A DNA stretch of 64,000 nucleotides from Pseudomonadota bacterium (GCA_023402015.1 JAEXCU010000015.1:825-64824); one strand, 5' to 3'; counted from the stretch's first letter, positions 12,157-57,679 are shown. A program made the numbers and translations. The notes: generated from the sequence alone by a model not told the origin.

Positions 12157-12666
12157 ATGAAAATAGTATGTGATTTTTGCAAAACAGAATATTCATGCGA
12201 TGCCGTGCCGACAATGCCGGTCAAATGTGCCGTGTGTGGAAATACATGGACGGTTCAGCGCCCCCCGCGCAAGAATGCGTTTTTGGTATTTATTGCGGCG
12301 ACGTGCGCATTGTTGGCGGCGATTGTATTTACCGTTGTTATAATTACCCGGCACCAGGTTGAAAATGTTGCAAATAATCCATTGGTACCCGCTGTTACGT
12401 CTGTGTCCACAGTTGTGGATGCGTCGGGCGTTGCGCACTTTGTGGTGAATGGTTATGTTCAAAACCGGTCTGATGAAATATACGGTGTGCCGGATTTAAT
12501 AATTATTTCATGGGATGGCGATGGAAATATTGTCGCACAACAAAAATTTATGCCGTCGGCAACATTGCTGGATGCGGGCGGGGCGACATCTTTTACGCAT
12601 ACTTTATCGTCGCCCACGGCGGGGGTAAAAAAGATAACTGCAAAATTGCAAAACGGGGGTAATTAA
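12157..12666 (+). CDS. MJ0042-type zinc-ribbon membrane protein (DUF3426-like C-terminus)
   Basis: CDFC...CAVC zinc ribbon at the N-terminus, one TM helix (FLVFIAATCALLAAIVFTVVII), then a small beta-rich domain. Confidence 0.6.
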   Translation: MKIVCDFCKTEYSCDAVPTMPVKCAVCGNTWTVQRPPRKNAFLVFIAATCALLAAIVFTVVIITRHQVENVANNPLVPAVTSVSTVVDASGVAHFVVNGYVQNRSDEIYGVPDLIIISWDGDGNIVAQQKFMPSATLLDAGGATSFTHTLSSPTAGVKKITAKLQNGGN

Positions 12667-19279: not shown

Positions 19280-19390
19280 ATCGTTGTTTTGTCAATAAAT
19301 TATAGGTGCGCGAAATCAAAAATTATTGCGCGATGATTTTTATCTTTCCAGTGGACAATTTTTATGTTAAAATTGTACCTAAGAGAGAAT

Positions 19391-21357: not shown

Positions 21358-22125
21358 ATGAATAAAAAAAATAAAATCTTTGCTGGAATTTACACAATCA
21401 CAAAACAAATGCGATTTGCATTTTTCGTTATTTGTTTGTGTGCGGTATCGGGTAATGTTTATGCGGCGGATAATGGTTGTATGGATGAAGATAATGACCG
21501 CATAACACCGGAATTGGCGTTATGCAGCACCCATGTTTTTAATATCGGCGATGTCAGCAATCCGGCCAATGATAACGACAAACAATTAATGCGCGACGTT
21601 GTTGCGTTAAAGACAACCGTCATGACGCAACAGATGAAAAAGCAATATGATTATCTTGAGGCCACAATTCGTCGCTTTAAGACCCAGTTGGAAAAGGCGA
21701 TTCTGACCACCAAATTACAGGCCGCGGGTGCCACGGATGATAATTCCGGTGGCGGGGCCAGTGCATCGCGCGATAAAAATGTTGTTTTAATTGGCGCAGA
21801 AAATTGCATGCTGAAAAGTTCTACGTCCGCGGGTCTGACATGTATCCAAAGTAATATTCGTATTGTTTTACAGGCCGTCAGTGCCGGCAACGTAGGCGAG
21901 GCATATCGTCAATTGCAAAAAGATTTGGGCTTTGCCAACAGTTATGGCGTTAAATGCGGTGGCAATCAATGCGATACATATGAAAAATGCAAAGATTTAC
22001 GCGCCAACCGCGAAAAAGTAAACGATTGCGCATATCAGTTGAATATTGCCGTTATGCAAAAGATAGAAGAGGCATCGCGCCAGCAACAAAATAATCGCCA
22101 GAATGGCAATAACATGTTTCAGTAA
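21358..22125 (+). CDS. secreted hypothetical protein (255 aa)
   Basis: Hydrophobic signal-like segment FAFFVICLCAVSGNVYA, scattered Cys, Q/N-rich tail. Starts 9 nt after the upstream gene, so likely co-transcribed. Confidence 0.55.
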   Translation: MNKKNKIFAGIYTITKQMRFAFFVICLCAVSGNVYAADNGCMDEDNDRITPELALCSTHVFNIGDVSNPANDNDKQLMRDVVALKTTVMTQQMKKQYDYLEATIRRFKTQLEKAILTTKLQAAGATDDNSGGGASASRDKNVVLIGAENCMLKSSTSAGLTCIQSNIRIVLQAVSAGNVGEAYRQLQKDLGFANSYGVKCGGNQCDTYEKCKDLRANREKVNDCAYQLNIAVMQKIEEASRQQQNNRQNGNNMFQ

Positions 22126-23427: not shown

Positions 23428-24084
23428 TTATGGTTTTATCAATTCGCCACCTTCGATAATTTCACCACCACCGATTCCGCCACCCAGGATACTGTATTTG
23501 CAATCGTCTGTTAATTGGTATGTGCCCGTGTCATCAGAATATTCGCATGTCTTGCCCAACATGTCAGGTTTGGCGACCTGATAACAATCTGTTATGCCGT
23601 TCGCACCATAATTTAAACTGGCCGAACCGCAATTTTTAAATTCAAATGTATCCGGGTCATAAACCCCGCTGTCGGTTTTTGTATTCCCGGGACATGCCAC
23701 GCATCCATAACCATCGTGATACCAACCACTGCGGCATTTTATTTTTTCACATTCGCATGTTTCTTCATTCAGTGTATTTCCCGCCATACACATCATGGCG
23801 CCGCAGCCAATGCATTCGCATGTGTCCGGATCTTGGTCGCCCATGCATATGTTGGGGCATACGCATTCCCCATTCTGATATACTTTTGGGTCTGCGCATT
23901 CAAATCCTACGCAATAACTGGAATCATAAACGCATCCGTTCGGCAGGCATCCGCCCGCAGGTGCCGGATTTGCACAACGATAACAATCCAAACATTCTGG
24001 GTAAATCATCTGGGCGGCATATGAATTTGTGCCCCATGCCATTGCAATTACCGCGGAATATAAACCGACGTTTGTATTAGGCAT
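23428..24084 (-). CDS. small secreted Cys-rich protein (furin/VSP-like C-x2-G-[YW]..C-x2-C repeats)
   Basis: Signal peptide, about 30 Cys in 218 aa, CRSGWYHDGYGCVACPGNT module, C-terminal DDTGTYQLTDDCKY motif shared with 33486, 35413 and 35743. Confidence 0.65.
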   Translation of the reverse strand: MPNTNVGLYSAVIAMAWGTNSYAAQMIYPECLDCYRCANPAPAGGCLPNGCVYDSSYCVGFECADPKVYQNGECVCPNICMGDQDPDTCECIGCGAMMCMAGNTLNEETCECEKIKCRSGWYHDGYGCVACPGNTKTDSGVYDPDTFEFKNCGSASLNYGANGITDCYQVAKPDMLGKTCEYSDDTGTYQLTDDCKYSILGGGIGGGEIIEGGELIKP

Positions 24085-24305: not shown

Positions 24306-25613
24306 CTATGGACACAGGGCCAATTGGTTCAGCACATTCTGAATATCTGTGTTGACAGATACTGTGATTTCACGTTGCAGGCCGTCTGTGTATGTATAAA
24401 AGAACTTTTCATTCGCAAATTCCGGCAGTGTCTGGTAAACCTGTTGGAATGGGGCCAGCATTGCCGTAAACCATTGACGGCCACGGCACAAACATCCATT
24501 GCGAACATCGGCCGCAACCGCCGCCGTTGCCGTATTTGGATATTTTGTATCCAGTTCTGTGTCCGACATCATCAGGCAACGTGCGCCAAATCCATAAAAG
24601 TTCGCATCGTCGGCCATAAATTTGTAAACCAATCCGTCGGATGCGCCCGCCCGTTTCAGCGAATAAACCATTCCGTCGGTGCAACATGCATTTGCCGAAT
24701 TCATCAGCATTTTGTACCGCGCCAGCAATGGTGCCGCCGCCGGATCATTTGCAGTGATGTCCGGATTGCAACGCGCCGCCGCAATAAATACATCCATATT
24801 ATCGGTACGGATTTTTGGACTGCGCGGGGATACGGTTTCGCGGACAATCGGTTTTCTGCGCCAAATTTCGCATTCTGTTTCAGATTCAAACGGGCAACCG
24901 TCTGCGGCCCCAAATGTTATCTGGACCACCTGGGTCATATCCTGGGCGGTGTATTCTGGGCGTGGCGCCGGCAACGACGGTGTTGCCGTTGGTTGTGACG
25001 CGGCCAATGTTGGCGTATTTACCCATAAATTTTCAGATGGTTTTTGCGGGTTCAGTAATTCTTCAATTCTTTCGCGCGTTGCGGCGGCATCTGCCATATT
25101 TTGATTGTATATGGCGACCATGCTGTCTTCGCGGGCAATTTCCACGGGCGTGGTTGACATGGCCGGTACGTCCGCGTCGCGGATATATAATTCATCCATT
25201 GGTTCCAAGAACCAATCACTGAAATCTTTGCTTTTATAACTGACGATTGAATCATCCCAAATCGGCACGCCGTCGCGCCAATCAACCGTTTTGTCGTATC
25301 CGCGCGGTTTGTAATTGTTGCCCGTTCCGTCCCATACCGGTGCGCGATTGTCGGCCGGCACAGGTTTAATGGATAACAATTTCATCTGGCGCATTGGAAT
25401 CTGGTCGGCATAAACGTATTCCGACGGCATCGCATAATTCATCGCCGCAGGTGCGACGGACGGCGCCGTTATTACATCCACAACCGTTGCGTCTGTTATA
25501 ATCGGCTGTGCAATTGGGGCAATGTTGCATCCCGCACCAATGCAATCAGATGCATGACCTGGAATCCCGCACAAACACAGCAGTGAAGAAAATATAGCAA
25601 TTTTAGTTTTCAT
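24306..25613 (-). CDS. secreted hypothetical protein (435 aa)
   Basis: Start at MKTKIAIFSSLLCLCGIPGHA (ATG 25613). Pro/Thr-rich middle and Cys-containing C-terminal domain. No family recognised. Confidence 0.6.
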   Translation of the reverse strand: MKTKIAIFSSLLCLCGIPGHASDCIGAGCNIAPIAQPIITDATVVDVITAPSVAPAAMNYAMPSEYVYADQIPMRQMKLLSIKPVPADNRAPVWDGTGNNYKPRGYDKTVDWRDGVPIWDDSIVSYKSKDFSDWFLEPMDELYIRDADVPAMSTTPVEIAREDSMVAIYNQNMADAAATRERIEELLNPQKPSENLWVNTPTLAASQPTATPSLPAPRPEYTAQDMTQVVQITFGAADGCPFESETECEIWRRKPIVRETVSPRSPKIRTDNMDVFIAAARCNPDITANDPAAAPLLARYKMLMNSANACCTDGMVYSLKRAGASDGLVYKFMADDANFYGFGARCLMMSDTELDTKYPNTATAAVAADVRNGCLCRGRQWFTAMLAPFQQVYQTLPEFANEKFFYTYTDGLQREITVSVNTDIQNVLNQLALCP

Positions 25614-25698
25614 AATACGAATCATATCATAAAAATACTGTCTTTGAAAATACAAAATTAATTCGGCATTTATTCATTTTGCGCAATTTTCAGTATTC

Positions 25699-27147: not shown

Positions 27148-28651
<1,504 letters not shown>

Positions 28652-28786
28652 TAGAGAATACCGTTTACACGAAAACGGTCAAATCCAAACGCGACTGTCT
28701 GAATATCTCTTTTTGAAATGGCGAATAATTCTGGTATCAGCGGAACTATTGAATAAAAGATATTTTCGTAAAATCAGAAATAATCT

Positions 28787-28863
28787 GGGTCAGTAGTTCA
28801 GTTGGTTAGAATGCCGCTCTGATACAGCGGAGGTCGAAGATTCGAGTTCTTCCTGACCCACCA
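28787..28863 (+). tRNA. tRNA-Ile (anticodon GAT), CCA encoded
   Basis: Cloverleaf: acceptor gggtcag/ctgaccc, anticodon stem ccgct/agcgg with loop ctGATac, T-arm gaaga-ttcgagt-tcttc. Confidence 0.9.
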
Positions 28864-29118
28864 CTTAATTTGATGAGGTTGGAATCAGAAACAAGTGATT
28901 GTTTTTGATTCCAGATGTTCCAGTAATATCTTCGGAATCTGCTTTTATAGCAATACATTGTGAATCGGTTTATATGTCGCAAATTAAAATTTATAGAAAT
29001 ATAAAACTTTGATTTGTTGAACATCGTATAATAATCTCAAAAATCTTTCTAAAATTTAAGAGTAATCACGAAAGTGATAATTCAATTAGAAAACAAGAAT
29101 CAACTGAAAATGCTTAAA

Positions 29119-29148
29119 AGACGTTTAACAAACGTCTGCTCATTTAAG
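29119..29148 (+). promoter_or_regulatory. boxB-like hairpin plus boxA-like element in the 16S-23S spacer
   Basis: Hairpin agacgtt-taaca-aacgtct followed by tgctcatttaag (compare E. coli boxA tgctctttaaca). Confidence 0.3.
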
Positions 29149-29195
29149 TTCTTTTATTAAGTGCCAGAAGACATTCTCTTCAAGCATAAGATAAA

Positions 29196-31935
<2,740 letters not shown>

Positions 31936-32039
31936 TTTATCTTATCGTTTGACTTTATGTCAGACGAATGCTTGAAGAGAACGTTGACAATTGATTCTTA
32001 TTGATTATAATGATGTTCGCTGGATTTATTCTGGTGATT

Positions 32040-32143
32040 ATTGAGCGGGAGCCACCCTCTGTTCCATCCCGAACCAGACAGGGAAACCCCGTATCGCCGA
32101 TGGTACTTTGGCTTAAGCCACGGAAGAGTAGGTCGTCGCCAGA
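32040..32143 (+). rRNA. rrf: 5S ribosomal RNA
   Basis: tctggtg...ccgaac...cgccgatggtactt...agagtaggtcgtcgccaga. The terminal stem is extended by ggatttatt/aataaatcc. Confidence 0.9.
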
Positions 32144-32178
32144 ATAAATCCAGTTTACGACATATAAACCGAATTTAA

Positions 32179-33485: not shown

Positions 33486-34181
33486 TTGCCGAATCTAATC
33501 GGTCATTTGGGCATGGCAGGGATTATTGTTGGCTTTATGGGGCTGATTTTTACAACCCGTGCATTTGGGGCCAGTTGCATAAGTTGTACCAATTCAATCA
33601 CCGGTGCATGCACCACAACAGGCCCAAACTGTTGCGCCCCATGCACCAGTGGTGGCACCATAACCCCAACATCATGCCCAGATGATTGTCCCAGCACATC
33701 GTTTTTTTCCCAAGTTTCCGGCACGAATTATGAGGCCAAGTGTGTTGATAGTACATTTAGTGGTAAAATCTGCAAATACCAATGCATAGATGGATATTTC
33801 AATTATAATGGCGGTGTTGGTAATTTAAATGGCACCCCAACGTGTTATAAATGCCCGACCGCAAATGTTCAATCATGTACCCGAACAAAACTTACCTGTA
33901 AAAGTGGATATTTTCATTTTACCCGCAGTCATAACTGCGTTGCATGCGTTGAAAATGCAACGTGCACGGATGGCGAAAATTTTAATTGCAAAATCGGGTA
34001 TTACCAATCCAACACACTGGCCTGCGCGCAATGCCCGTATGATTCCGAAACAAAACAATATGGTACCACCAGTGCCCCAGGCGCAACATCAGAAAATCAA
34101 TGCTATGTACCGGCTGATATTTCTGTTTCTGACACAACAGGTGTTTGGACGTATATTGAAAATTGCCAATATACAGGGTAA
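33486..34181 (+). CDS. small secreted Cys-rich protein (furin/VSP-like repeats)
   Basis: Signal-like GIIVGFMGLIFTTRAFGA. Modules CIDGYFNY..CYKCP, CKSGYFHF..CVAC and CKIGYYQS..CAQCP. C-terminal SDTTGVWTYIENCQY motif. Confidence 0.65.
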   Translation: MPNLIGHLGMAGIIVGFMGLIFTTRAFGASCISCTNSITGACTTTGPNCCAPCTSGGTITPTSCPDDCPSTSFFSQVSGTNYEAKCVDSTFSGKICKYQCIDGYFNYNGGVGNLNGTPTCYKCPTANVQSCTRTKLTCKSGYFHFTRSHNCVACVENATCTDGENFNCKIGYYQSNTLACAQCPYDSETKQYGTTSAPGATSENQCYVPADISVSDTTGVWTYIENCQYTG

Positions 34182-41381: not shown

Positions 41382-41569
41382 GGTGCCATTATATCTTAAA
41401 TCCATGTAATCGGCAAACAGTAAAAAGTCTTTTCTGGGCGCCCTGGTTTTCTTATTTACACAGGTTTTCAAAAATGTTATAATTAGACAAAGTATATATG
41501 CCAATGGCATGCATGCGCGCTGTAAAACAGCGGGTTTTCCGGCCCACCCCGGATACAGGAGAGTATTTT

Positions 41570-43681
41570 ATGAAAAGCCGTAATTTCGCAGATTTTTGCA
41601 AAAATGCAATGGGTACAGTGTTTTTATTGGCCGGTGCATTTTTCGTTTGTTCTACGTTGGTATCAATGCGGGCGGTTTTCGCAGACCCAATCGCACCTGC
41701 GGCAATAACCGCGCAATCGGGACGCGCCGGCGCCACCGGGCGCAGTAATGCGACCCCGCGCAATGCAACAAACACGGTATCCCGCGCAACCGGCACCACA
41801 ACCGCGGCGACCCCGTCGCGCAGTGTTGCGTCGCGCGCCAATGCCGCAAATTCTTCGCGCGTAACAACGGCAAATTCATCCCGCGCAACAACGGCGGCCA
41901 CCACAACAAATAATGCATCACGTGGTGTTGCATCGCGCAACGTTGTTTCCCGCACGGGTACCACAAATGCATCGCGCAGTACGGGTGCAACAACCGCACG
42001 CAGTGTTCGCGCCCGCGCTGCCAATCCGTCCCGCGTTTCTTTGCAGGGCAGTGCAATCCGTGGGTCCAAGGCATCAACAAATACATACACGTATTTGTCA
42101 AACAAACTGTACACTGGCAATTATTCAAATATCATTGATTCATCCACTGGTTTGATTTCGGCCGATGCATACAACAATTGTATGGAATCATATTATGCAT
42201 GCATGGACGAAATCTGCACCGCACGTAATGCGGCCCAGCGTCGTTGCGCATGCGCCGGTCGTGTCAAAGCCTTTGCCGAGGCGGAAAGCCAACTGGAAAC
42301 GGCCAACGAAGAATTGATTAAGGTTTCTGGTGAATTGGCATTGCTGATTGCAACCAAGGGCAAAGATGTCAGCGAGGCATTTAAATTAACCGATGCAGAA
42401 AAGGTTATGAACTGCGTTTCCTGGCAAGAGGCCAGCAAGAAAGGCACCATTTCATCTGATGATTTCGGCGATTGGTGCGCACAACACGCGATTTATGACG
42501 GCACATGCAGTAATACAACCCCGCCGTCTTATTGTAAAGAAAATGGCAATTCATTCGGATTTGATGTCAGTGCCCTGGACGGCAGTGGCAGTGATATCTT
42601 GGCATCATTACAATCATGGGCCAATGCCAAGGAAAAAACCCTGACCATCATTTCTGATGATGAAAACAGCCTGACCAGTGCGTTTGACAATCTGTCCCAG
42701 GTGGTCAGTGGCCTGGCCGGAATTAATGGCGCGTTTTCCAACAGTGAAAATCTGAAAGATTCATTGGCAGAAACATGGGGATATGAATTGTTTGAATATG
42801 CCCACAACAATGTTTGCAACCGCGTTTTGGATTCCTGCTTTAACGGTATTTACGAGGCATGCGGTGCCCCACCGTCATCGGGTCGCAAATGCGGCAATGG
42901 TCAATCACAATGCCCGTACAATTATAACAGTGTTATCAGTGTTTCAAACACCGGTACATATGAATTGAACTTTGTTGAACCGAATACCGGTTATACTGCA
43001 TCCAATTCGGCAACATGCTTTGGTTATACATCTGCATCGGGCGACCCGTATTCAAACCTGCGTGGTCCGGTGGCCGATGCCCGCCGCAGCATTTTGCAGA
43101 AATATGCGCTGGATGCGAATGCGGACTGCGACGCATATGGCGACCAATTGCGTACAACCGCCCAGAATATCGGATATCAAAAGGTTGCCGCGCAACAGGC
43201 ACTGCAACAGAAACGTCTGGAATTTGCCCAGGATGAAAAACAATCTGTGCTGACCGATGCGATTACGGCGGGCACCAACTTTAACGAATGTATGAGCGAG
43301 ATTTTAGACTGTTATGAAACCCAGGCGAATTCACATGGCCCCGGTTCCAGCAGTGTGTGGTCTGATTCACGTATCAAAACATATTGTGCCCAGGTTGCAA
43401 ATGTTCCGCATTGCTATGAAACAATGATTTGCAATCCGTCATCTGCCCAGTTCAAGGCGGTTATTGACAAGGCCGACAGTGCACAATGCCTGAACAGCCA
43501 GGATTACACCAAGAACACATGCCGCAATATCGTTACATTGAACGAAATCTTGAATGGTACGGGCGCGGCAAAGCCGGGCAACATACCGTCTGAATCCAAT
43601 GGTGATTCTGCGGGTATGCGTGAACAATGCCTGTTGGATTCATTTGTTGATGAAATCCGTTCATGGAGTGCAAATAAATAA
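41570..43681 (+). CDS. 704-aa secreted Cys-rich protein with S/T/R-rich N-terminal tract
   Basis: RBS aggagag, start MKSRNF. About 150 aa of (S/T/N/A)n-SR repeats. NCMESYYACMDEICTARNAAQRRCAC is the same C-x6-C-x4-C-x9-C-x-C module as in 45394..47619. Confidence 0.7.
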   Translation: MKSRNFADFCKNAMGTVFLLAGAFFVCSTLVSMRAVFADPIAPAAITAQSGRAGATGRSNATPRNATNTVSRATGTTTAATPSRSVASRANAANSSRVTTANSSRATTAATTTNNASRGVASRNVVSRTGTTNASRSTGATTARSVRARAANPSRVSLQGSAIRGSKASTNTYTYLSNKLYTGNYSNIIDSSTGLISADAYNNCMESYYACMDEICTARNAAQRRCACAGRVKAFAEAESQLETANEELIKVSGELALLIATKGKDVSEAFKLTDAEKVMNCVSWQEASKKGTISSDDFGDWCAQHAIYDGTCSNTTPPSYCKENGNSFGFDVSALDGSGSDILASLQSWANAKEKTLTIISDDENSLTSAFDNLSQVVSGLAGINGAFSNSENLKDSLAETWGYELFEYAHNNVCNRVLDSCFNGIYEACGAPPSSGRKCGNGQSQCPYNYNSVISVSNTGTYELNFVEPNTGYTASNSATCFGYTSASGDPYSNLRGPVADARRSILQKYALDANADCDAYGDQLRTTAQNIGYQKVAAQQALQQKRLEFAQDEKQSVLTDAITAGTNFNECMSEILDCYETQANSHGPGSSSVWSDSRIKTYCAQVANVPHCYETMICNPSSAQFKAVIDKADSAQCLNSQDYTKNTCRNIVTLNEILNGTGAAKPGNIPSESNGDSAGMREQCLLDSFVDEIRSWSANK

Positions 43682-45393: not shown

Positions 45394-47619
45394 ATGAAAA
45401 AACTGTTCACGTGTTTTTTCGCATTGTTTTTATATGCGCCATGCGCCGTTGCGGCCGATGGTGCCGTTTCGCGTGTCGCGGGAAATAATGCCACAGATTC
45501 CACCGTGCGGGCGGATGCAAATGCGCGGTCCGGGACAAATCGTTCGGGCGTACGTGATTCATCAGATGACAATTCCACAACTGCGCGTGCGGCCCCACGC
45601 ACCACCACCGGTGCCGATGCGTCCACGTCCGTGCGCGGAAATGTTGCAGGTCGTGGAAATAATCAATCGCGGACAACAATTGCGGTTGGTGCCGCACGCG
45701 TTGCCGCAAACGAAGACAAACCGCACATTGTTTCACGCAGTGGTGCATCCAATTCTGCAACCGGCATGGCCGCGGAATCCAAAACCGCGCCGCGCCGTAC
45801 ACCAATAACAACGCGTTCATCTGCATCTGATTTGGGCAGTCGCATTCGTGCCCCGATTTCCAGTGCCAAGAACGCAAATCGCACAGCTGATACAGACAGT
45901 GAATCACGCAGTGTCAGCGCACGCGCCACCGCAACCCGCGAAACCATTGAAGAGGCGAAAAACCGCCTGGAACAAACGGCGGATTTAAATAAATCGTGCC
46001 AGGAACAATATAATGATTGCATGGACCAGTTCTGCGCGGTAATTGATGCCAATCAAAAACGTTGCAGTTGCAGTGCGAACCTGTCCAAATATACCAAGGT
46101 TGAATCCGCAGTCAAAGATGCCAACACGCAATTGAACGAAGTGGCCCAGCGTATCCGCTATGTCGGGTTATCGGCCGATGAAATCCGCGCCATTATGTCT
46201 GCGACCGAGGCCGAAGATGCCCTGACCGGTGCAACCGACAATACCGAAACCCGCAACATGTTGGAAGAAATTGAAAAGTTAATCAAAGACCCAACCAGTT
46301 CTACGTCTTATGCGGCCGATACGTATACGGGGCTGGACATGGATTTAGATTTCACCGCGGACAACAATGATTTATTTAATCTAGATTTTCTGAGCACCAA
46401 TTCAGGCAGTTTTTCAAACCTGCGTGGAACGGAACTGTACAACGCTGCGAAAAAACGCTGCAACACCATTCTGACCCAGTGTAAAGAGGTTGGCGCCACA
46501 TCACAACAGATTACGGGTAATTATGACCTGGCAATTGATAAAGATTGCATCGCGTATGAACAGGGCCTGACCAAGATGAATGAAACCCTGGTGTCCAACG
46601 TGCGCAGTGCGAACCGCATGCTGCAAAAGGCGCGTTTGGCCGTTTTGCAAAATAAAAATCAATACGATGCCAAGGGATGCATTGCCGCCCTGGATGCATG
46701 CATGACCGATGATATGGTTTGTGGCGCGGATTATACCAAGTGTCTGGACCCAACCAAAAAATACATCGATGAAAATGGCCAAGTCGTCCTGGGCCAGGAT
46801 ATTACCGATATAACCGATTTTATGGAAAACTTTGATAATGCAAAAATTTCATCATCGTTCTTGCAAAAATCGTATGGCATGGCAATTGGACCGGAAAAAT
46901 GTTCTGCCGCGGTCAGTGGCGACGGCGATGATGTTGGAAACAATGGTGCATGCGTTGTTAAATACCTGTTGCAGAAAATCGGTACCAAGCAAAAAATAAC
47001 CGACGAAGGTTTATGTCGCGCGGTTTTGGATAAATGCCAATCGTACACATATGATTCCAACGGAAATTATAAACCATATAACGATGTTGTTGTGAATTAT
47101 GTTCAGCGCGCCATGGTTAACATCAAGGCCGCCCAGCATCAGATTATTTCTGATTATGCGTCTTCGTGCATGGTAGATATCGCCGCATGTTATAACCAAC
47201 AGGTAACCCAGGTTAACGCATGGTCATCCACCGCCAGTGTCAACAGCGTTTACAACGTTATGCGTGGTGCGTGCCGCAATGTTGCATTAACATGTGCATA
47301 TGCCGTGTTTGACAAAGATGAATCCGGATTGTGCCCAGTGTCCAATGGCGCACACGACGATGCAAAATGCATAGACAGCATTTCTGAAATGTTCTATCAA
47401 TCGCTGTTGTGTCCGGATAATTCAACGTATCAAACAACCCAGGGAACCCCCGGTGTTGGCGGTTATGTCAATGAACGATGCAAATGTTTATCAGGATACG
47501 AAGTATTCGGTTCACAATGTTTGGTTGTGTGCCCGACAAATTCATCGCGTAATACATATGGAACATGTGTTTGCGCGTCCGGGTTCACAATGAAAAACAA
47601 CGTCTGCGTTGCGAATTAA
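45394..47619 (+). CDS. 741-aa secreted Cys-rich protein with S/T/R-rich tract and C-terminal furin/EGF-like modules
   Basis: Signal peptide MKKLFTCFFALFLYAPCAVA. SR-rich region of about 170 aa. SCQEQYNDCMDQFCAVIDANQKRCSC, GCIAALDACMTDDMVCGADYTKC. C-terminus CKCLSGYEVFGSQCLVVCP...CVCASGFTMKNNVC. Confidence 0.7.
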   Translation: MKKLFTCFFALFLYAPCAVAADGAVSRVAGNNATDSTVRADANARSGTNRSGVRDSSDDNSTTARAAPRTTTGADASTSVRGNVAGRGNNQSRTTIAVGAARVAANEDKPHIVSRSGASNSATGMAAESKTAPRRTPITTRSSASDLGSRIRAPISSAKNANRTADTDSESRSVSARATATRETIEEAKNRLEQTADLNKSCQEQYNDCMDQFCAVIDANQKRCSCSANLSKYTKVESAVKDANTQLNEVAQRIRYVGLSADEIRAIMSATEAEDALTGATDNTETRNMLEEIEKLIKDPTSSTSYAADTYTGLDMDLDFTADNNDLFNLDFLSTNSGSFSNLRGTELYNAAKKRCNTILTQCKEVGATSQQITGNYDLAIDKDCIAYEQGLTKMNETLVSNVRSANRMLQKARLAVLQNKNQYDAKGCIAALDACMTDDMVCGADYTKCLDPTKKYIDENGQVVLGQDITDITDFMENFDNAKISSSFLQKSYGMAIGPEKCSAAVSGDGDDVGNNGACVVKYLLQKIGTKQKITDEGLCRAVLDKCQSYTYDSNGNYKPYNDVVVNYVQRAMVNIKAAQHQIISDYASSCMVDIAACYNQQVTQVNAWSSTASVNSVYNVMRGACRNVALTCAYAVFDKDESGLCPVSNGAHDDAKCIDSISEMFYQSLLCPDNSTYQTTQGTPGVGGYVNERCKCLSGYEVFGSQCLVVCPTNSSRNTYGTCVCASGFTMKNNVCVAN

Positions 47620-50510: not shown

Positions 50511-51818
50511 TTATTTCTTGTCGCCGCCCGTTCGTATTGTCTTTATCCAATCGCGCGCAGTGCCGTATGTTCTGTTCCACAATTTTTGAACATCGGATTT
50601 TACCTGATTACTAAAACTGTCATTTATACTGCCGCCCAGGGATTTGGCAATTTTATCGGTACTGTTTGCCAGATATGCAACCAATGCGCCTGTCAGCAAT
50701 GTCATAATAAAGTTTGCGTTATTTAATGACGGAATTTCCGATGCCAGATTTGCATCAACCACACCCGACAACAATGCCCCACACAGTGCGACCACAATTG
50801 ATAATGATACAAAATAAATGGCGGCGTTAACAAATCGCTGAATCTGGGCGGATAATGATTCAACCTTGAACAATCCCAGGAATCCGTTAAATATATCGCC
50901 GGCAATTCCTTTGTACGTTGTTTTGCCAATTGTTTCTGCGATTGCGGTAAATGGCAACATTAAAACGGCCAAAAACAAATCCGTAATCACCCCCAATGCC
51001 ATAAACGCAAATTTAAACGCGGTGTAAATAAATAATACGATAAATGCCGCCCCCACCAGGAATGTAAACGCACTGGTCCCAATTCCGGCCAGCATCCATT
51101 TAAACCCGGCCGCAACGGCGGTATAGAAAAATCCAGACAGGCGCGTCGGCACGCACAACATATCGGCCGCCGCGTTCGCATCCACCAACATACGTGCAGA
51201 TGTATGCGCGTCGGCATATGCATGAATTGCGGCGCATGTGTCGGGAATTTGTGCACCGGACGCATTTGCAACGGCGTTCAGTATTAAATCAGACAAATAT
51301 GTGCCAACGGTTATAATCGGTCCCATTACCCACATAAATACCTGGGCCGGGCCCTGTTCCAGGATGATAATCCATATGGCCAGAATGGCGCCTTTTTTAA
51401 TTATGTTTTCAACCAGTGCGCGTGCGCTGGTACCGGCGGTCATCATCTGATATGCTTCAAAAATAATCCAGAATGCATACGCAACAATTAAAAATATTAC
51501 GACAAATCGCACCAGGGAATTATCCAACACATCGCCCACCAACGACAATGCATTCATGAATGCCAGGCCGGCCTTGGCTTCTATCGGGACATAATCTGCG
51601 ACCAATTGGTTTGCCTGAAATTCTGATTGAAACTGGGTCAGGTCGGTTGTGATTTCAGATTTAAATACGTCCAAATTATGCTGGGTCGTCCATGCGCCAT
51701 TGTCGCCAATATCACCCAGTGGCATGTTTGTTGCCGCGTTCGCAATTGGTATAATTATTACCACCGCTGCAATCGCGCACATAATAATTTTTGATAAAAA
51801 TTTAATACATTTTTTCAT
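50511..51818 (-). CDS. VirB6/TrbL-like polytopic membrane protein, paralog 1 (435 aa)
   Basis: Start MKKCIKF (ATG 51818) overlaps the upstream stop by 1 nt. Signal-like N-terminus, about 100-aa loop, then at least 6 hydrophobic helices and a hydrophilic tail. The segment YAFWIIFEAYQMMTAG...AILAIWIIIL recalls A. tumefaciens VirB6 TLWIIVQGILVIRG...VTIVVALIV, from memory. Confidence 0.5.
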   Translation of the reverse strand: MKKCIKFLSKIIMCAIAAVVIIIPIANAATNMPLGDIGDNGAWTTQHNLDVFKSEITTDLTQFQSEFQANQLVADYVPIEAKAGLAFMNALSLVGDVLDNSLVRFVVIFLIVAYAFWIIFEAYQMMTAGTSARALVENIIKKGAILAIWIIILEQGPAQVFMWVMGPIITVGTYLSDLILNAVANASGAQIPDTCAAIHAYADAHTSARMLVDANAAADMLCVPTRLSGFFYTAVAAGFKWMLAGIGTSAFTFLVGAAFIVLFIYTAFKFAFMALGVITDLFLAVLMLPFTAIAETIGKTTYKGIAGDIFNGFLGLFKVESLSAQIQRFVNAAIYFVSLSIVVALCGALLSGVVDANLASEIPSLNNANFIMTLLTGALVAYLANSTDKIAKSLGGSINDSFSNQVKSDVQKLWNRTYGTARDWIKTIRTGGDKK

Positions 51819-53254
51819 CAACTGTTCTTCCCAAACGCCTTGGACATGGCGCCAAATATTTGTTGTGGTGCATCCCAAATCTTTTTACCCAAATCTTTGG
51901 TCCATGCGCCAAAGTCAAATTGTTCTTTGCTGCCTTTGCCAAGTATTGCATCAACCTTGGGTGATACTGCATAGAAATACAGCAAGAATAAAAAGAACAT
52001 TAACAACAGGAAATCCCAACCGTCCGACATAAAGTCAAATGCGCCCGGGTATTGGCGTTCAACGGCCGCCCGCTGCGCGGTAAAGCAATTACGGAATTTA
52101 TCTGCGTCCATTTCGCCGTTTGTTATGGCAACACGTTCGCATGTGGAAAATACGTTCATTACCGATAATGTTTGTGCATCCGGATTTTTTACTGTCTGAC
52201 CCATCATGGGCGGTAAAATCGCACTGTACCCGTCGTTGGGGCCGGGAAAGAATTCGTCTGCGGCAAATGAAACGGTTGCGTAAATTATCAGAATCTTTAA
52301 TGTAATCGCGATAATTTGTACCGCAGATTTAACCAGCATGTTTATCGCGCCTTTGACCACACCGTCGGCCAATTTCCATGTTTTTTCAAATGCCGCCGCC
52401 GCCAGCAGTAATGGTAAAAATATTATCAGGAACACCAATTTAAACACAACAGACAAAACCTGAAAGAACAAATCAAATCCGATTATTAAAAACATTAATA
52501 CCAATGCCAGGCCCGCAATCCACGTAAACGCGCCGCCACCCATCCCCAGCCATGCGTAATTCATTAATGCAAATCCGCCTGCGGCGCCGGCCAACATAAC
52601 ACTGTTTAAATTGCCCATTACGCACATAAACGGTTGCAACACAGGATTTAAAATATCATCACTGTCCGCCGCATTCATTGCCCCGCATGTTGCCGCGTCT
52701 GACACGCCCGTTGCGGCCATTGATAATTCCGCGCCCACAAACATCACAGGGGTTATTGTAATGTCTGCGACCGTCCGTAATGCGGCGGTGCCACCCATGC
52801 CCAATGCGCCCAATAACGCACCAACGATTAAAACGCGTGCGCCCTGGCGCCAAACTTTGTCAAACCAACCCTTGAATTCCAATTTTTTTTCTTTTGTATC
52901 CAATGTGGTTGTTTTCTTGGCGGCGTCAAAGATATATTGTGCACTGTACACGAACAGGAAAATTCCAAATCCCACCGCCAACAGAATCCAAATATTGTCA
53001 ACCATTGCGGTCCAAAACATTTCTGCCGCGCGTCCGATTACGCCAAATAATTCAGCGATATAACCGCAAAGAAAGCATCCGTTGGCGGTCGCAATATCAC
53101 CGTTTTGCACCCCAATCGCCGTCATGAAATTTCCCATACTGGTGTACGTCAGTGCAGCACCCCCAATAGAAGAAGACAAATACCAAATACCCAACCCCAG
53201 CGCGATTGCACCCATTATGAATTTTATGGCGATCATAATCAGTTTTGCTTTCAT
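51818..53254 (-). CDS. VirB6/TrbL-like polytopic membrane protein, paralog 2 (478 aa)
   Basis: 1-nt start/stop overlap at both ends. Same architecture as paralog 1. N-terminal-loop CxxC (NGCFLCGYIAELF). Confidence 0.5.
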   Translation of the reverse strand: MKAKLIMIAIKFIMGAIALGLGIWYLSSSIGGAALTYTSMGNFMTAIGVQNGDIATANGCFLCGYIAELFGVIGRAAEMFWTAMVDNIWILLAVGFGIFLFVYSAQYIFDAAKKTTTLDTKEKKLEFKGWFDKVWRQGARVLIVGALLGALGMGGTAALRTVADITITPVMFVGAELSMAATGVSDAATCGAMNAADSDDILNPVLQPFMCVMGNLNSVMLAGAAGGFALMNYAWLGMGGGAFTWIAGLALVLMFLIIGFDLFFQVLSVVFKLVFLIIFLPLLLAAAAFEKTWKLADGVVKGAINMLVKSAVQIIAITLKILIIYATVSFAADEFFPGPNDGYSAILPPMMGQTVKNPDAQTLSVMNVFSTCERVAITNGEMDADKFRNCFTAQRAAVERQYPGAFDFMSDGWDFLLLMFFLFLLYFYAVSPKVDAILGKGSKEQFDFGAWTKDLGKKIWDAPQQIFGAMSKAFGKNS

Positions 53255-54447
53255 TACTTACCGCCCGTCTTTTTTTCACCGCCACTGATGATTGTTTCAC
53301 CAACTTTTTTTGCGCTGTCCACTACGGCGGTGGTCAGTTTCATGGCATCGTTGGCCAATTGCTCGCTCAGTTGATTTTCTTCTTTTACATCAAACGCACC
53401 CAGGACCATTTCACTTACCTTGGGGATTTGGCCATAAATAAAGTTTAAAACGTATACCAAAATAACACTGCTGGCAATGGTCAGTGCCGCCAAGTTGTCG
53501 TCCGACAAATCTGCGGCGAAAACATCACCACTGGTTATCAGGTGCATAATTTCCGCAGCTGATGTTCCCGGTGTGGAAAAGAATTTCGCAATTATAACCA
53601 TTATAACGGTGTATGTTATAACGGCGGCGGCCAGTGATATTATCGCGCCAATTAATTTTTTAAATTGTCCCGTGCCCATGGATTTACCCAGACCCGACAT
53701 CCACCCCGGAACACCGTCCGCACCCTTAAACGAAATCAGAACCAGTGATAATGGGAAAAAGAACGCAAAGTACGTCATCGCAACAATAATGTCTGCAAAG
53801 TAAAAACAAAACTGCACGAATAATTTAAAGAAACCATAAAATAAATACAGTCCGATAAAGAACAACAAAATGTGTTTTATCAATGCCCCAATGCCCAGCA
53901 TCGCGCGCCACGTAAACGCACTGTCCATTACTGCAATTCCCAATTTCATATACGATTGGAATTGTGTAATTGTTGTCTTCATCAGCAATATGATTGTGTC
54001 GCGCAGTTCTGGGCGATAAAATCCATCATCCGACATTTTCATCGGAACGTATGAAACCTTTTCATTCACAATCGTGTCGTCGGTTTGCAACATGCTTTGC
54101 GTATATGTCAGTGCGATTTGCGCCGCCGGTTCAATTGTGATTGTTGTGATAAAACGTGGCAACACCACACCCATACTTAAAAACGTCAGTGCCAACAGCG
54201 CATTAATGAAAACAGGCTTAATTGATTTTTGATACCATGGGTCTTTCATCCCGCCTTTCATATTTTGCCAAAACGCGTTTAAAACAAAGAACGCGAATAA
54301 AATGCAAAACAGTATCGCGCAAAATATCGCAAATTGTTTGTACAATGCGCCGGCGGCGGTTGACACAATTTGAAATAATCTGTCAAACACCGGACAGCCC
54401 CAACACTGTACCGAAGAATCCACCAAAGAATTCATCCAATTGTTCAT
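53254..54447 (-). CDS. VirB6/TrbL-like polytopic membrane protein, paralog 3 (397 aa)
   Basis: ATGA overlap with the upstream gene. N-terminal CWGCPVFDRLF, then multiple TM helices. Confidence 0.5.
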   Translation of the reverse strand: MNNWMNSLVDSSVQCWGCPVFDRLFQIVSTAAGALYKQFAIFCAILFCILFAFFVLNAFWQNMKGGMKDPWYQKSIKPVFINALLALTFLSMGVVLPRFITTITIEPAAQIALTYTQSMLQTDDTIVNEKVSYVPMKMSDDGFYRPELRDTIILLMKTTITQFQSYMKLGIAVMDSAFTWRAMLGIGALIKHILLFFIGLYLFYGFFKLFVQFCFYFADIIVAMTYFAFFFPLSLVLISFKGADGVPGWMSGLGKSMGTGQFKKLIGAIISLAAAVITYTVIMVIIAKFFSTPGTSAAEIMHLITSGDVFAADLSDDNLAALTIASSVILVYVLNFIYGQIPKVSEMVLGAFDVKEENQLSEQLANDAMKLTTAVVDSAKKVGETIISGGEKKTGGK

Positions 54448-55742
54448 TTCTTTTTAATCAACCCCACGGCTTTGCCGATTTTGGCGCCCCAATCTTTGGC
54501 ACCGTTGTAAATGGTTTTGGAATCTTTCATAACCTGGCTGTGCAGTTTATCCATACCCGAACCCACATATGCATCCAATTGTTTGCGCGTTAATTCAAAT
54601 ATGCGCAGCATTAAATAAAAGGTTAATATTGCCGATAACCATAAAACAGAATGCTGGCCGAACCCAAGTGCAGAATTTGCAACCTGGGGGATATTGGACG
54701 ATGCGGCACCACCGGCGGCAACGACGAAAACAGACGAACTCCACTGAAACAAAGATTTTATAATTGCGATATTTATAAACAGAATAAATGCGCATGCAAT
54801 CATAGTTATAATCAGTTTTTGTAATGCCTTGGTAATGCCGGAAAATGCGGGCCAAATGTCAAACCATTTATCGCTGGGCTTTACGACATATGTCAAAACC
54901 TGAAACGGATATAAAATCAATGCCATGCCGAAATTAAATATTGCCTGGATAATCAGCAATGCCATAAACAAATTACTGGCCACAAAGGTAAAAACCAATA
55001 ATATTCCGGTTATTAAATTCAGAAAATCTTCGCCCCCATGCGGCACCAGTGTAATCAGCCCACGCAACCCACGGTCAATAAATTCAAAGCCGCGTTTAAT
55101 AATCTGGTTGTTGGCGTGCGAAATGTCCGCCACCGGTTGAACCAAGAATTCACAACTTTCCTGGGAAATCCAGCCCTGTTGAACGATTGATTCAGGACAC
55201 GTGATATGCGGTGCATTAACGCCTGTGTCGTTAATGGTTTCGGTTATGCTGTGTGTATAAATTGCCCCGAATTGCAGGAATGGATTAACCAACCATTCTG
55301 TTAAATATACCGGGCGAATCTGTAATAATACAACGGCCGCAATAATTGCGCGCAGTGCGGGCTTTAACATATTGGTTGCGATTGTTTCGGCGCTGGCTTT
55401 GCCGGCGGCCATTTCGCCACCACCGGAAAATCCAAAAAAAGACACCCAAACCTTGGGAAAATATAATTTTATTAAATACAGCGACATTGATATCGCCAAA
55501 AATCCCCAAACCAAAATGTAAATGATACCGTTTCCGTTGCCCACAAAAAATTCATACCCACCCGACGCAACGGCCATTAATGCATCCAAAATTATCGGAA
55601 CAAATGGCGCCAAATTAAAACTGTCAACAATACCCCATGCGGCCGCGGCCGGCTGTGGGGCCAAGAAAACCGCCACCAATACCACCACTGGCATAATGCG
55701 ACGCAAACGGGATAAAAAATAAGAATTAAAAAAATGCATCAT
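54444..55742 (-). CDS. VirB6/TrbL-like polytopic membrane protein, paralog 4 (432 aa)
   Basis: First gene of the four-gene minus-strand unit. Signal peptide ...VAVFLAPQPAAAAWG and multiple TM helices. Confidence 0.5.
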   Translation of the reverse strand: MMHFFNSYFLSRLRRIMPVVVLVAVFLAPQPAAAAWGIVDSFNLAPFVPIILDALMAVASGGYEFFVGNGNGIIYILVWGFLAISMSLYLIKLYFPKVWVSFFGFSGGGEMAAGKASAETIATNMLKPALRAIIAAVVLLQIRPVYLTEWLVNPFLQFGAIYTHSITETINDTGVNAPHITCPESIVQQGWISQESCEFLVQPVADISHANNQIIKRGFEFIDRGLRGLITLVPHGGEDFLNLITGILLVFTFVASNLFMALLIIQAIFNFGMALILYPFQVLTYVVKPSDKWFDIWPAFSGITKALQKLIITMIACAFILFINIAIIKSLFQWSSSVFVVAAGGAASSNIPQVANSALGFGQHSVLWLSAILTFYLMLRIFELTRKQLDAYVGSGMDKLHSQVMKDSKTIYNGAKDWGAKIGKAVGLIKKK

Positions 55743-55766
55743 CTGTTGTTAATTTATCTTTTCAAT

Positions 55767-55796
55767 TATATCACATTTAGGGCAAAATGTGATATA
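55767..55796. promoter_or_regulatory. perfect 12-bp inverted repeat (TATATCACATTT-N6-AAATGTGATATA) in the divergent promoter region
   Basis: Read directly: 55767..55778 is the exact reverse complement of 55785..55796. It lies between divergent VirB6-like genes (55742 and 55806). Confidence 0.5.
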
Positions 55797-55805
55797 GTTA
55801 AAACA

Positions 55806-57095
55806 ATGAATAGCCTAAAAAAGTTCTGGATTATTTTTTTATCTTTCCTGCCGTTTTCGGCCGGGGCGGTTGCACCATTGGTTGTGGGCGGAATCGCGGG
55901 GTTGGGCGTTATCGCAGGCTTTTCCATATATCGCACTGCGGCGCCGGTAAACATGGCCGACGCCATGAATTTTTTTTCAACGTGTTGGTCGTGCCAAATG
56001 TTTTCAGATATCATGGCGGCAATGTCGGGTTTACTGCCACGTGTGTACAGTGCAATTGGCACGGTGATTTTGCCGTTTGCCGCGGGTTTGACGGCCGTAT
56101 GGTTTGCATGGAAATTATTTTCCGGGTTTTTAAATGCCAAAGTGGAACAGCCATGGGCCCTGGCCGGCCAATTTGGAACACAATTAATTAAATTAACATT
56201 TGTTGGGGCGTTGTTGTTAATACCGTTGCCGCGATTACTAAGCGAAGTTGTGATTGAACCGGTGTTTAATATTGGGTTGTCATTAAATCGTGCGGTCGCA
56301 GGTAATGATGAATTTGCAAAATGCGTTGTTGCAACCGCAATTGCCGACCCGGTGTCAGTCAGTGAAAAATCTGCATCCGCCGGCGCGTATTCGCCAAAAC
56401 TGCGCCATAACTTGGCGTGCGAGGTTGCAAATGTCCACCAAATGACAGGCCTGGGGATGACGGTTGGTTGGACGATGCTGAATATGGCATTTAATGAACA
56501 ATACATGCATAAAATTATGTGGGACGTTCCGATTTTCCCAAACGTGCCAATTTTCTTTATGGGATTGTTAATATTGGTGCTGTTCTTTTTTGCGTTATTG
56601 CCCGTGCCACTGTATTTTTTGGAAGTATTTATAAAACTGACCATGGACCTGATAATGTTGCCGTTGATGCTGTTGTCATGGTTATTCAAGGGCTGGCCCA
56701 TATTCCCCAATGGCGGTAAAAATATTCAGGGCATTATAAATGATGTGGTTAAATCCACCGCCGGCATTGCAATGGTTGGGGTATTTGTTTCATTTGCGGT
56801 TATGTTTTTAAATGCGGTTTTTGGCCAGTGGCAGGGCGCGTCTATATTGGCCACGGCAATGCAACAAAACGATTCGCATGTTTTAATGGATGGGTTAATG
56901 ATGCGCAATGACAGTTTGATTACAATCATATTAATGGGAATATTTATCGCGATGTTTATGACAATGATACCGACATTGGTAAAAACATTGTTTGCAAATG
57001 TAAATATTCCCACGTCTTTCTGGGAAACGACCAAAAAGAATATAAATATTACATGGCAAAACCTGAAAAAATGGTATGCCGCAATAAAAAAATAA
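55806..57095 (+). CDS. VirB6/TrbL-like polytopic membrane protein, paralog 5 (429 aa), divergent
   Basis: Start MNSLKKFW (ATG 55806). CxxC motif TCWSCQMFSDIM, WFAWKLFSGFLN...LIKLTFVGALLLIPL, multiple TM helices. Confidence 0.5.
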   Translation: MNSLKKFWIIFLSFLPFSAGAVAPLVVGGIAGLGVIAGFSIYRTAAPVNMADAMNFFSTCWSCQMFSDIMAAMSGLLPRVYSAIGTVILPFAAGLTAVWFAWKLFSGFLNAKVEQPWALAGQFGTQLIKLTFVGALLLIPLPRLLSEVVIEPVFNIGLSLNRAVAGNDEFAKCVVATAIADPVSVSEKSASAGAYSPKLRHNLACEVANVHQMTGLGMTVGWTMLNMAFNEQYMHKIMWDVPIFPNVPIFFMGLLILVLFFFALLPVPLYFLEVFIKLTMDLIMLPLMLLSWLFKGWPIFPNGGKNIQGIINDVVKSTAGIAMVGVFVSFAVMFLNAVFGQWQGASILATAMQQNDSHVLMDGLMMRNDSLITIILMGIFIAMFMTMIPTLVKTLFANVNIPTSFWETTKKNINITWQNLKKWYAAIKK

Positions 57096-57163: not shown

Positions 57164-57679
57164 ATGAAACAGTTTCCGATTCTTTATTGGCCGCGCAAAA
57201 CAAACGGTGATAATGACTATCAACTGGCGCGCAAGGTTATAAATGGCGTCGCCGGTGTTATGCCCGATGTTGTGGGCGCGGATGCGGATTTAACGGCCAT
57301 TTTGGCCCAGCATCCAGATGCATCTGTATATTACCCGGTATTTTGTGAATCCACTGGTTGGTGGGGTGAATTATTGGGTGGCGATGCGGTTGTGGTTGAT
57401 AAATTAATCATATCGCCCGAATGCCAATTAATGGTGATTCAGGCGGGAAAATCTGCCCCCCGTCGGCGCAGTGGCCAGAATCAATTACTGGCGGCGGAAA
57501 TATACCCGACCAGTGGATTTTTCAAGAAAATGAATTCTGGCATTGCGACGGTTGCAGATATGCTGGCCACCGACGCGGGAACGATATTGGCATTATTTTC
57601 CGGCAAGAACCAGTCCCAGTTTATAAATATATTGGAATCCACGGGCAATTCATATTTGGGGTGCATTGGTCAATATTAA
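57164..57679 (+). CDS. hypothetical protein (171 aa)
   Basis: ORF downstream of paralog 5. No signal peptide or recognisable motif. Confidence 0.4.
   Translation: MKQFPILYWPRKTNGDNDYQLARKVINGVAGVMPDVVGADADLTAILAQHPDASVYYPVFCESTGWWGELLGGDAVVVDKLIISPECQLMVIQAGKSAPRRRSGQNQLLAAEIYPTSGFFKKMNSGIATVADMLATDAGTILALFSGKNQSQFINILESTGNSYLGCIGQY

Follow-up and report, generated by a model that had tools for sequence, protein, structure and literature searches.

A five-gene array in Candidatus Enterousia

The 64,000-nucleotide (nt) stretch of DNA analyzed here (hereafter the window; Pseudomonadota bacterium, GCA_023402015.1, JAEXCU010000015.1:825-64824) carries, at positions 50,511-57,095, five open reading frames (ORFs) for polytopic membrane proteins that a sequence-only reading had described as paralogous and likened to VirB6/TrbL of type IV secretion systems (T4SSs). 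Our analysis concerns the relationship of these proteins, designated paralogs A to E, to VirB6 and the role that such an array might play in its host. Paralogs A, B, C and D form a compact minus-strand series with TGATG, TAATG and ATGA junctions, corresponding to overlaps of 1, 1 and 4 nt, and E is transcribed divergently from D (Table 1). The ORF list and the junction sequences bear out the five ORF lengths, the junctions and the 63-nt spacer as first described, and the flanks are also as originally reported: a UvrD-like helicase gene (uvrD) on one side and a hypothetical gene followed by rpmE on the other. The sequence of E is identical to that of an existing database protein (P0001), and the GC content of the array region is that of the rest of the window. 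The stop codons of the convergent uvrD (+) and paralog A (-) genes fall on adjacent bases (50510/50511), an arrangement with zero intergenic space and hence no room for a terminator between them. On the other side, E is followed by the hypothetical gene, rpmE, suhB and a PBP1A gene. The hypothetical protein, of 171 amino acids (aa), has no Pfam or NCBIfam match, and its gene may be co-transcribed with E.

A scan of one genome per species yielded 80 loci from organisms recorded as uncultured Alphaproteobacteria, as 'uncultured Rickettsiales UMGS...' or as Candidatus Enterousia, among them the circular metagenome-assembled genome OZ007020.1 (958,618 bp). All five genes are intact and syntenic in 78-83 loci from some 80 Candidatus Enterousia species, and gene order and flanks are identical wherever the gene tables of the orthologous loci (up to ~21 kb each) were inspected. 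Identity between orthologs is 41-73% for A (79 loci), 55-82% for B, 41-77% for C, 50-78% for D and 55-87% for E. Enterousia belongs to the uncultured order Rs-D84, whose genomes (~0.75-1.0 Mb, ~90% coding) lack the tricarboxylic acid cycle, the respiratory chain and standard nutrient transporters, and whose members are predicted to have a partner-dependent lifestyle (PMC12306168); some NCBI records read 'uncultured Rickettsiales' as opposed to this assignment. The five genes take up ~0.7% of a genome of ~0.96 Mb. Since they are conserved and syntenic in about 80 species, comparative sequence evidence indicates that they are functional genes under purifying selection and not chance ORFs.

Hydropathy scans reveal a common layout for the five proteins, with five to seven hydrophobic segments, a central loop of 74-91 aa and a hydrophilic, Lys/Arg-rich tail of 32-75 aa. 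The signal-like N-terminus that had been attributed to all of them is present in A, B, D and E; paralog C, which lacks an N-terminal hydrophobic segment, opens with the CxxC region (motif CWGC). A CxxC motif is found in B, C and E (CWSC in the latter), and a pair of loop cysteines in A, B, D and E, those of E being conserved and located in the central loop. Besides its CxxC motif, B has an extra Cys-containing loop of ~80 aa ahead of the last helix. In a 111-sequence alignment of the family the sole invariant position is the proline of a Leu-Pro pair (286 in E numbering, used throughout), and P152, G221 and G253 are nearly invariant; the consensus also includes a CxxC near the N-terminus and two cysteines in the central loop.

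The five paralogs are only 20-28% identical to each other (BLASTP). Profiles built from ~80 orthologs of each protein and compared pairwise with hhalign give collinear alignments for C-E (98%), A-D (97%), D-E (91%), A-E (90%) and A-C (88%), and weaker ones for B-E (65%) and A-B (56%); the comparison lends no direct support to the pairs B-C (46%), C-D (19%) and B-D (0.4%). A profile of homologs from outside Enterousia (the out-group) matches every paralog: E at 100%, C at 99.8%, A at 99.5%, D at 99.4% and B at 98.9%. Because the profile pairs align and the out-group profile matches all five, A-E form, on this sequence evidence, a single family of ancient duplication. The paralogy initially proposed is thus real, if very old.

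A consensus scan of the spacer between D and E locates one site on each strand (TGATATAAT on the minus strand, TGATATAGT on the plus strand), and both fit an extended -10 element (TGnTATAAT), standing back to back as an imperfect palindrome. The core of this region, TCAATTATATCACATTT-N6-AAAATrTGrTATAcTT, is nearly invariant in the ~60 orthologous loci inspected, and the remaining spacer varies. Promoter-like sites are not enriched over the whole region (23 found, 19.5 expected in shuffled sequence); it is from the position and conservation of these two sites, and not from site frequency, that we infer a pair of divergent promoters, with predicted transcription starts near 55758 (-) and 55805 (+), driving the D-C-B-A operon on one side and E on the other. 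Only 7 nt separate the end of the plus-strand -10 from the E start codon and no Shine-Dalgarno sequence is evident, for which reason the E mRNA may be leaderless.

The isolation of the array from other T4SS genes and its extreme divergence from canonical VirB6 could be taken to mean that the five genes are decaying, non-functional remnants of a lost conjugative element or T4SS. Nonetheless, five intact ORFs with fixed order and overlaps are found in some 80 species at 41-87% amino acid identity, in genomes of ~0.9 Mb that are ~90% coding (PMC12306168), together with a nearly invariant putative promoter region and a GC content like that of the surrounding genome, and decay is hence hardly credible as an explanation.

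Relationship to VirB6 and TrbL

The direct searches conducted here weigh against placing A-E in the VirB6/TrbL superfamily. The sequence-only reading had named a lack of significant similarity to TrbL/VirB6 as the outcome that would contradict it and, taken literally, this is what a Pfam scan returns: PF04610 (TrbL/VirB6) is matched by none of the five proteins at E<=1 and, at E<=0.01, by no window protein and by none of the ~80 A-E-type representatives. No NCBIfam model matches any of the five, and sequence searches against the PDB with protein B and with an E-centred profile return no VirB6. Profiles of single paralogs, including one of E only, give no significant hhalign match (0.2-6%) to an alignment of TrwI-type VirB6 comprising 31 proteins from plasmid R388 (NC_028464) and its relatives. 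The same holds for a phmmer comparison of R388 TrwI with 150 family representatives, in which nothing significant was obtained. Some spurious candidates were set aside in the course of these searches: FAM70 and a NucS shadow ORF, which are below-threshold noise in the Pfam and NCBIfam scans of the five proteins, and a cysteine peptidase, the sole match in the PDB sequence searches, which was judged to be due to chance.

The link to VirB6 is provided by more distant relatives. With a profile made from E orthologs and the A-D sequences, hmmsearch was run exhaustively on 1.84 billion cluster representatives and produced 929 matches at E<=1e-3, of which 275 reach E<=1e-10. The 150 best-scoring are mainly orthologs of one or another of the five paralogs, and longer out-group proteins (470-1018 aa) match several paralog profiles at once. 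PF04610 is matched by nine of 100 scanned family representatives, all nine belonging to the out-group and none being an ortholog of A-E. The gathering score of the model (25.9) is exceeded by two of them, P0262 (34.5 bits) and P0252 (32.6 bits), and the other seven score 15.7-25.6 bits. The matched PF04610 positions (~80-210 of 215) correspond roughly to residues 225-340 of E, which comprise a hydrophobic hairpin with the invariant proline and the next helix. Existing annotation points the same way, with P0252 named "type IV secretion system protein" by NCBI and P0393 "type IV secretory pathway VirB6-like protein" by JGI.

When compared with the TrwI-type VirB6 alignment by hhalign, the whole-family profile aligns over 101 columns with a probability of 31% (E 5e-4), and the out-group profile over 113 columns with a probability of 65%. 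In the weak whole-family alignment, P286 of the invariant-proline helix of E is paired with the invariant Gly-Pro181 of TrwI, and Phe294 with Trp189 of R388 TrwI. A conserved, essential Trp after the core helix has been described for VirB6 of A. tumefaciens (PMC2653234). Position 294 is occupied by an aromatic residue throughout the window paralogs, Tyr in A and Phe in the other four, and a Trp lies 3-4 residues past it in B, D and E and is absent in A and C.

AlphaFold2 models of E and B, obtained from the sequences returned by protein searches, are both all-helical, with a mean predicted local distance difference test (pLDDT) of 87.5 and a predicted template-modelling score (pTM) of 0.80 for E, and of 82.4 and 0.79 for B. 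Foldseek comparison of E with the PDB places TrwI/VirB6 chains on top (8rtd_L, 8rt9_F and 7o3v_J/G/F; probability 0.99-1.00, template-modelling score (TM) 0.43-0.55), and that of B retrieves five TrwI/VirB6 chains (probability 0.87-1.00); over both models, target-normalised TM to the R388 chains is 0.40-0.55. The best target for E other than VirB6 is yeast PNS1 (probability 0.47), and transporters and G-protein-coupled receptors (GPCRs) stay below 0.25 with TM ~0.1. For B, targets other than VirB6 do not exceed 0.28. Across the two models, ATP-binding cassette (ABC) transporters, GPCRs and TTYH channels remain at or below 0.28 with TM ~0.1. It must be set against these results that the Foldseek E-values are modest (0.008-0.3), TM on target length is ~0.5 and the root-mean-square deviation is large (8.5-14.6 Å). 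The models of E and B match TrwI at the level of the fold, to a moderate degree and not closely.

Since transitive profile homology, the weak TrwI profile alignment and the structure matches all agree, it is very probable that the five proteins belong to the VirB6/TrbL superfamily, as a distinct subfamily that current models miss. The VirB6/TrbL-like designation is thus upheld, by way of the out-group PF04610 intermediates, the AlphaFold2/Foldseek matches and the weak TrwI alignment. A different view would be that A-E are polytopic helical membrane proteins from a family unrelated to VirB6, for instance one of transporters, and that their likeness to VirB6 stems from hydrophobic composition and generic helix packing. 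The lack of any direct Pfam, NCBIfam or PDB sequence match, the low probabilities of the TrwI comparison (0.2-6% for single paralogs, 31% for the whole family) and the fact that Foldseek E-values never fall below 1e-3 are all in keeping with it. Against it stand out-group homologs whose matches to A-E all lie at 98.9-100% and which pass the PF04610 threshold, two independent models that both rank VirB6 chains first (probability 0.87-1.00), and the fact that the Pfam, hhalign and family alignments all converge on one conserved core; moreover, no transporter family was detected in the scans. We therefore regard an unrelated family as very improbable.

Membership of the superfamily would extend well beyond the window. 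Paralogs A-E are 'hypothetical' in existing annotation, and about 930 representative clusters (50% identity) would now be assigned with them to VirB6. The CxxC motif, P152, G221, G253 and the Leu-Pro at 286 provide a signature for a possible new profile.

Five-copy arrays and the search for a secretion system

VirB6 forms a pentamer in the R388 machine (PMC9259494). Two N-proximal helices of the protein lie in the inner membrane and the others build the base of a periplasmic stalk, which carries a VirB5 pentamer and has been proposed as a pilus-assembly platform and part of the channel (PMC9259494; PMC12857230). TrwI of R388 and VirB6 of A. tumefaciens resemble the Enterousia proteins in being all-alpha and polytopic, with long hydrophobic helices and an invariant-proline core helix followed by further helices. 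As opposed to TrwI (342 aa) and VirB6, the Enterousia proteins are 100-180 aa longer, have no direct PF04610 match and conserve the CxxC and loop cysteines; they are also present in five divergent copies rather than one, and not in a virB operon beside VirB5 and VirB8. The VirB6 counterpart of the Legionella Dot/Icm type IVB system is considered to be DotA, which forms a pentameric central protochannel (PMC12857230). DotA is much larger than the proteins studied here, its Foldseek match to B is negligible (9ngy, probability 0.14) and no sequence similarity to it was seen.

A closer parallel for the amplification is found in the rvh T4SS of the Rickettsiales, in which VirB4, VirB8 and VirB9 are duplicated and VirB5 is lacking. 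Rickettsia has five VirB6 paralogs that are ~80% mutually divergent and whose VirB6/TrbL domains average 413 aa; in the Rickettsiales the array directly follows virB3-virB4, and T4SS genes are scattered on the chromosome (PMC2653234). By published description, RvhB6a-e and the VirB6-1 to -4 proteins of the Anaplasmataceae are likewise tandem sets of four to five divergent paralogs in reduced alphaproteobacterial genomes, and the length of the rvh domain (~413 aa, PMC2653234) is near the full length of the Enterousia proteins. Rvh proteins reach 670-1150 aa through large hydrophilic extensions, whereas those of Enterousia (397-478 aa) are bare domains with tails of 32-75 aa. In Enterousia the array, one copy of which is inverted, is enclosed by uvrD and rpmE and not located downstream of virB3-virB4, and its host belongs to Rs-D84 and not to the Rickettsiales. 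Several TrwI copies are also present in single alphaproteobacterial genomes in the amplified trwJ-trwI-trwH of the Bartonella Trw locus. The Bartonella copies are recent and mutually similar, match PF04610 well and reside within a complete trw T4SS locus.

The five-fold arrangement is not exclusive to Enterousia. Exactly five tandem family members are found in each of three further lineages, here represented by loci L085, L090 and L086/L093 (Table 1), and the five-copy count thus recurs in at least four lineages, Enterousia included. Out-group relatives span 405-1018 aa and, unlike those of Enterousia, copies in these sister lineages reach 600-1018 aa. Collinearity is clear only between L085 and L090, where it holds for every copy; BLAST scores did not resolve one-to-one orthology between Enterousia A-E and the out-group copies. 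All out-group arrays are bordered by housekeeping genes, and virB3/virB4 adjoin none of them.

The search for the remainder of a T4SS came out negative and, in this respect, argues against assigning the array to such a system. A Pfam scan of 42 window proteins (most ORFs of at least 150 aa) detected no T4SS family among them, the proteins scanned having housekeeping and envelope functions (dnaX, LpxD, Skp, an OmpA-family protein, PPDK, MraY) or, in many cases, no match. A phmmer search with the R388 components VirB2-B11 and VirD4 also covered the window together with every locus retrieved, 11,076 ORFs in 1.8 Mb of sequence that for the most part represents one region sampled across 80 species. 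Its sole match, for VirB11 at E 0.002, is the AAA+ protein RarA/MgsA and was discarded. No VirB2-5, VirB8-11 or VirD4 is found in the window, in the orthologous loci of ~80 species or beside the out-group arrays. The absence of other T4SS genes from the vicinity, as initially claimed, accordingly extends from the 64-kb window to orthologous loci of up to ~21 kb in about 80 species. Secretion systems are not mentioned in the genome paper on Rs-D84 (PMC12306168), which is a weak hint in the same direction, and a literature search found no paper linking Enterousia or Rs-D84 to a T4SS. The names Enterousia, Rs-D84, UMGS, URSG01 and DVJI01 are absent from the supplementary files of a survey of rvh systems (PMC11077975), again a weak negative.

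In spite of these results, the explanation we favor, to which we would give roughly two chances in three, is that of a T4SS with dispersed genes to which A-E contribute divergent VirB6 subunits, possibly assembled as a hetero-pentamer, and that would serve contact-dependent exchange. In such a scheme, a single bidirectional control region would drive both the translationally coupled D-C-B-A operon and E, perhaps together with the 171-aa gene, and the combination of shared control and translational coupling would favor balanced output of all five proteins. These would act together as a VirB6 module, with the remaining T4SS genes located elsewhere in the ~0.96 Mb genome, in the manner of the scattered rvh genes, and the five distinct subunits may assemble 1:1:1:1:1 into a hetero-pentameric platform. 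This last idea, admittedly, comes from the count of five and from nothing else. From the reduced, partner-dependent nature of the host we infer a role in contact-dependent secretion to, or uptake from, partner cells; an essential T4SS is known from the epibiotic Saccharibacteria, whose genomes are reduced in a similar way (PMC12857230).

The same observations might be read as co-option of the VirB6-like proteins by an envelope complex other than a T4SS, Enterousia itself having no VirB4, VirB11, VirD4 or outer-membrane core. The array would then constitute a stand-alone, periplasm-spanning conduit, or be a partner either of the pseudopilin set encoded 40 kb away or of the Cys-rich secreted proteins. 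In agreement with this view, the array is never beside virB3/virB4 or any other T4SS gene in ~80 Enterousia species and three sister lineages, and the silence of the Rs-D84 literature and of the rvh survey is equally what one would expect. The CxxC motif, the loop Cys pair and the Phe that hhalign pairs with TrwI Trp189 are hallmarks of the family that canonical VirB6 does not have, and the window itself encodes three prepilin-type proteins and many Cys-rich secreted ones. On the other hand, VirB6 has been described as conserved among all T4SSs (PMC12857230), dispersal of T4SS genes is the norm in reduced genomes of Alphaproteobacteria (PMC2653234) and the window covers ~7% of the genome, so that an absence there says little about the remainder. 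To our knowledge, no VirB6 homolog works without VirB4. Co-option is hence unlikely, though far from negligible. A bolder version of it, in which Enterousia and its sister lineages altogether lack VirB4, VirB11 and VirD4 and the five proteins form a hetero-pentameric, ATPase-independent conduit spanning the periplasm for exchange with partner cells, appears less likely again.

The array of Enterousia is not, then, a new kind of system but an unannotated, structurally minimal VirB6 that is five-fold amplified outside the Rickettsiales. Amplification of VirB6 to five very divergent copies, a trait seen as the hallmark of rvh in the Rickettsiales, thus extends to a separate order of gut Alphaproteobacteria that are extracellular or partner-dependent, and amplification in Rs-D84 is uncoupled from virB3-virB4. 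That minimal genomes have time and again kept exactly five distinct copies gives the hetero-pentamer hypothesis a concrete, testable form, and the Enterousia proteins, being bare domains without the rickettsial extensions, are convenient subjects for such a test. If the rest of a T4SS is indeed present, the dispersed system favored here would be a strong candidate for the means by which a widespread, uncultured bacterium of the human and livestock gut depends on other cells.

Neighboring genes and other features of the window

Table 1. Coordinates of the features discussed in the text. Positions refer to the window unless preceded by a locus name; lengths are in amino acids (aa) unless given in nt.
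Feature	Position	Strand	Remarks
Paralog A	50511-51818	-	435 aa counted from ATG; last gene of the D-C-B-A operon
Paralog B	51818-53254	-	478 aa; most divergent copy
Paralog C	53254-54447	-	397 aa
Paralog D	54444-55742	-	432 aa; opens the minus-strand operon
D/E spacer	55743-55805	both	63 nt; putative divergent control region
Extended -10-like site	55773-55765	-	TGATATAAT
Extended -10-like site	55790-55798	+	TGATATAGT
Paralog E	55806-57095	+	429 aa; divergent from D; best conserved, nearest the family consensus
Hypothetical protein	57164-57679	+	171 aa; directly 3' of E on the same strand; position kept in relatives
Prepilin-type proteins	8267-9622, 9600-10814, 10778-12136	+	404-452 aa; overlapping genes
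Zinc-ribbon/transmembrane protein	12157-12666		3' of the prepilin-type genes; followed by a secreted 172-aa protein
Cys-rich proteins	14271-17381, 19364-21349, 21358-22125, 23428-24084(-), 24306-25655(-), 33486-34181, 41498-43681, 45394-47619		3-10% Cys; up to 1036 aa
Leucine-rich repeat protein	17486-19279	-	597 aa; BspA-type region (PF13306)
rRNA operon	27149-32144		16S, 23S and 5S
L085 array			GC 30%; copies of 770, 781, 857, 474 and 650 aa
L090 array			Copies of 640, 648, 405, 457 and 763 aa; then rpsB-tsf
L086/L093 arrays			Copies of 644-692 (PF04610-positive), 665-756, 774-962 and 435-443 aa; 70-72-aa protein; copy of 484-492 aa
Small out-group proteins	L085:4967-5227, L090:7780-8055, L086:16603-16815, L093:15766-15984		70-91 aa; two hydrophobic segments
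Large hydrophilic out-group proteins	L093:3446-7670, L086:3641-7785, L085:2895-4889, L090:5613-7694	-	664-1139 aa

Two sorts of proteins accompany the out-group arrays. The first is a small protein with two hydrophobic segments, whose gene precedes the array in L085 and L090 (86-91 aa) and stands between copies 4 and 5 in L086 and L093; the protein might be a partner of VirB3 or VirB2 type. No corresponding ORF was seen in the Enterousia array. The second is a large hydrophilic protein encoded divergently from the array, Cys-poor, without signal peptide and without Pfam match, and paired in L086 and L093 with a companion of 234-238 aa. These large neighbors could be substrates, effectors or accessory factors.

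Within the window, the Cys-rich proteins are a recurrent feature. Most have a signal-like N-terminus, the largest ends in a C-terminal hydrophobic anchor, and those scanned have no Pfam match above threshold (none at E<=0.001 for 33486-34181); they may be surface or adhesin proteins. A link between them and the array had been suggested from the window sequence, and it finds no support in the out-group, where the array neighbors are, as noted above, Cys-poor, hydrophilic and devoid of signal peptide.

The three overlapping genes near the start of the window encode unusually large proteins with prepilin-type N-termini, their sites being QSG|NFLLQ, SRG|ASMTE and QRG|GMLVE; the +5 residue is Glu or Gln. 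Pfam matches none of the three proteins, which look like a giant pseudopilin set of a type IV filament or of a system akin to type II secretion. The 597-aa protein with a BspA-type leucine-rich repeat region belongs to a family that is common in host- or partner-associated microbes. Lastly, the rRNA operon is complete, and its 16S-23S spacer holds only tRNA-Ile(GAT), the usual tRNA-Ala not being detected there.

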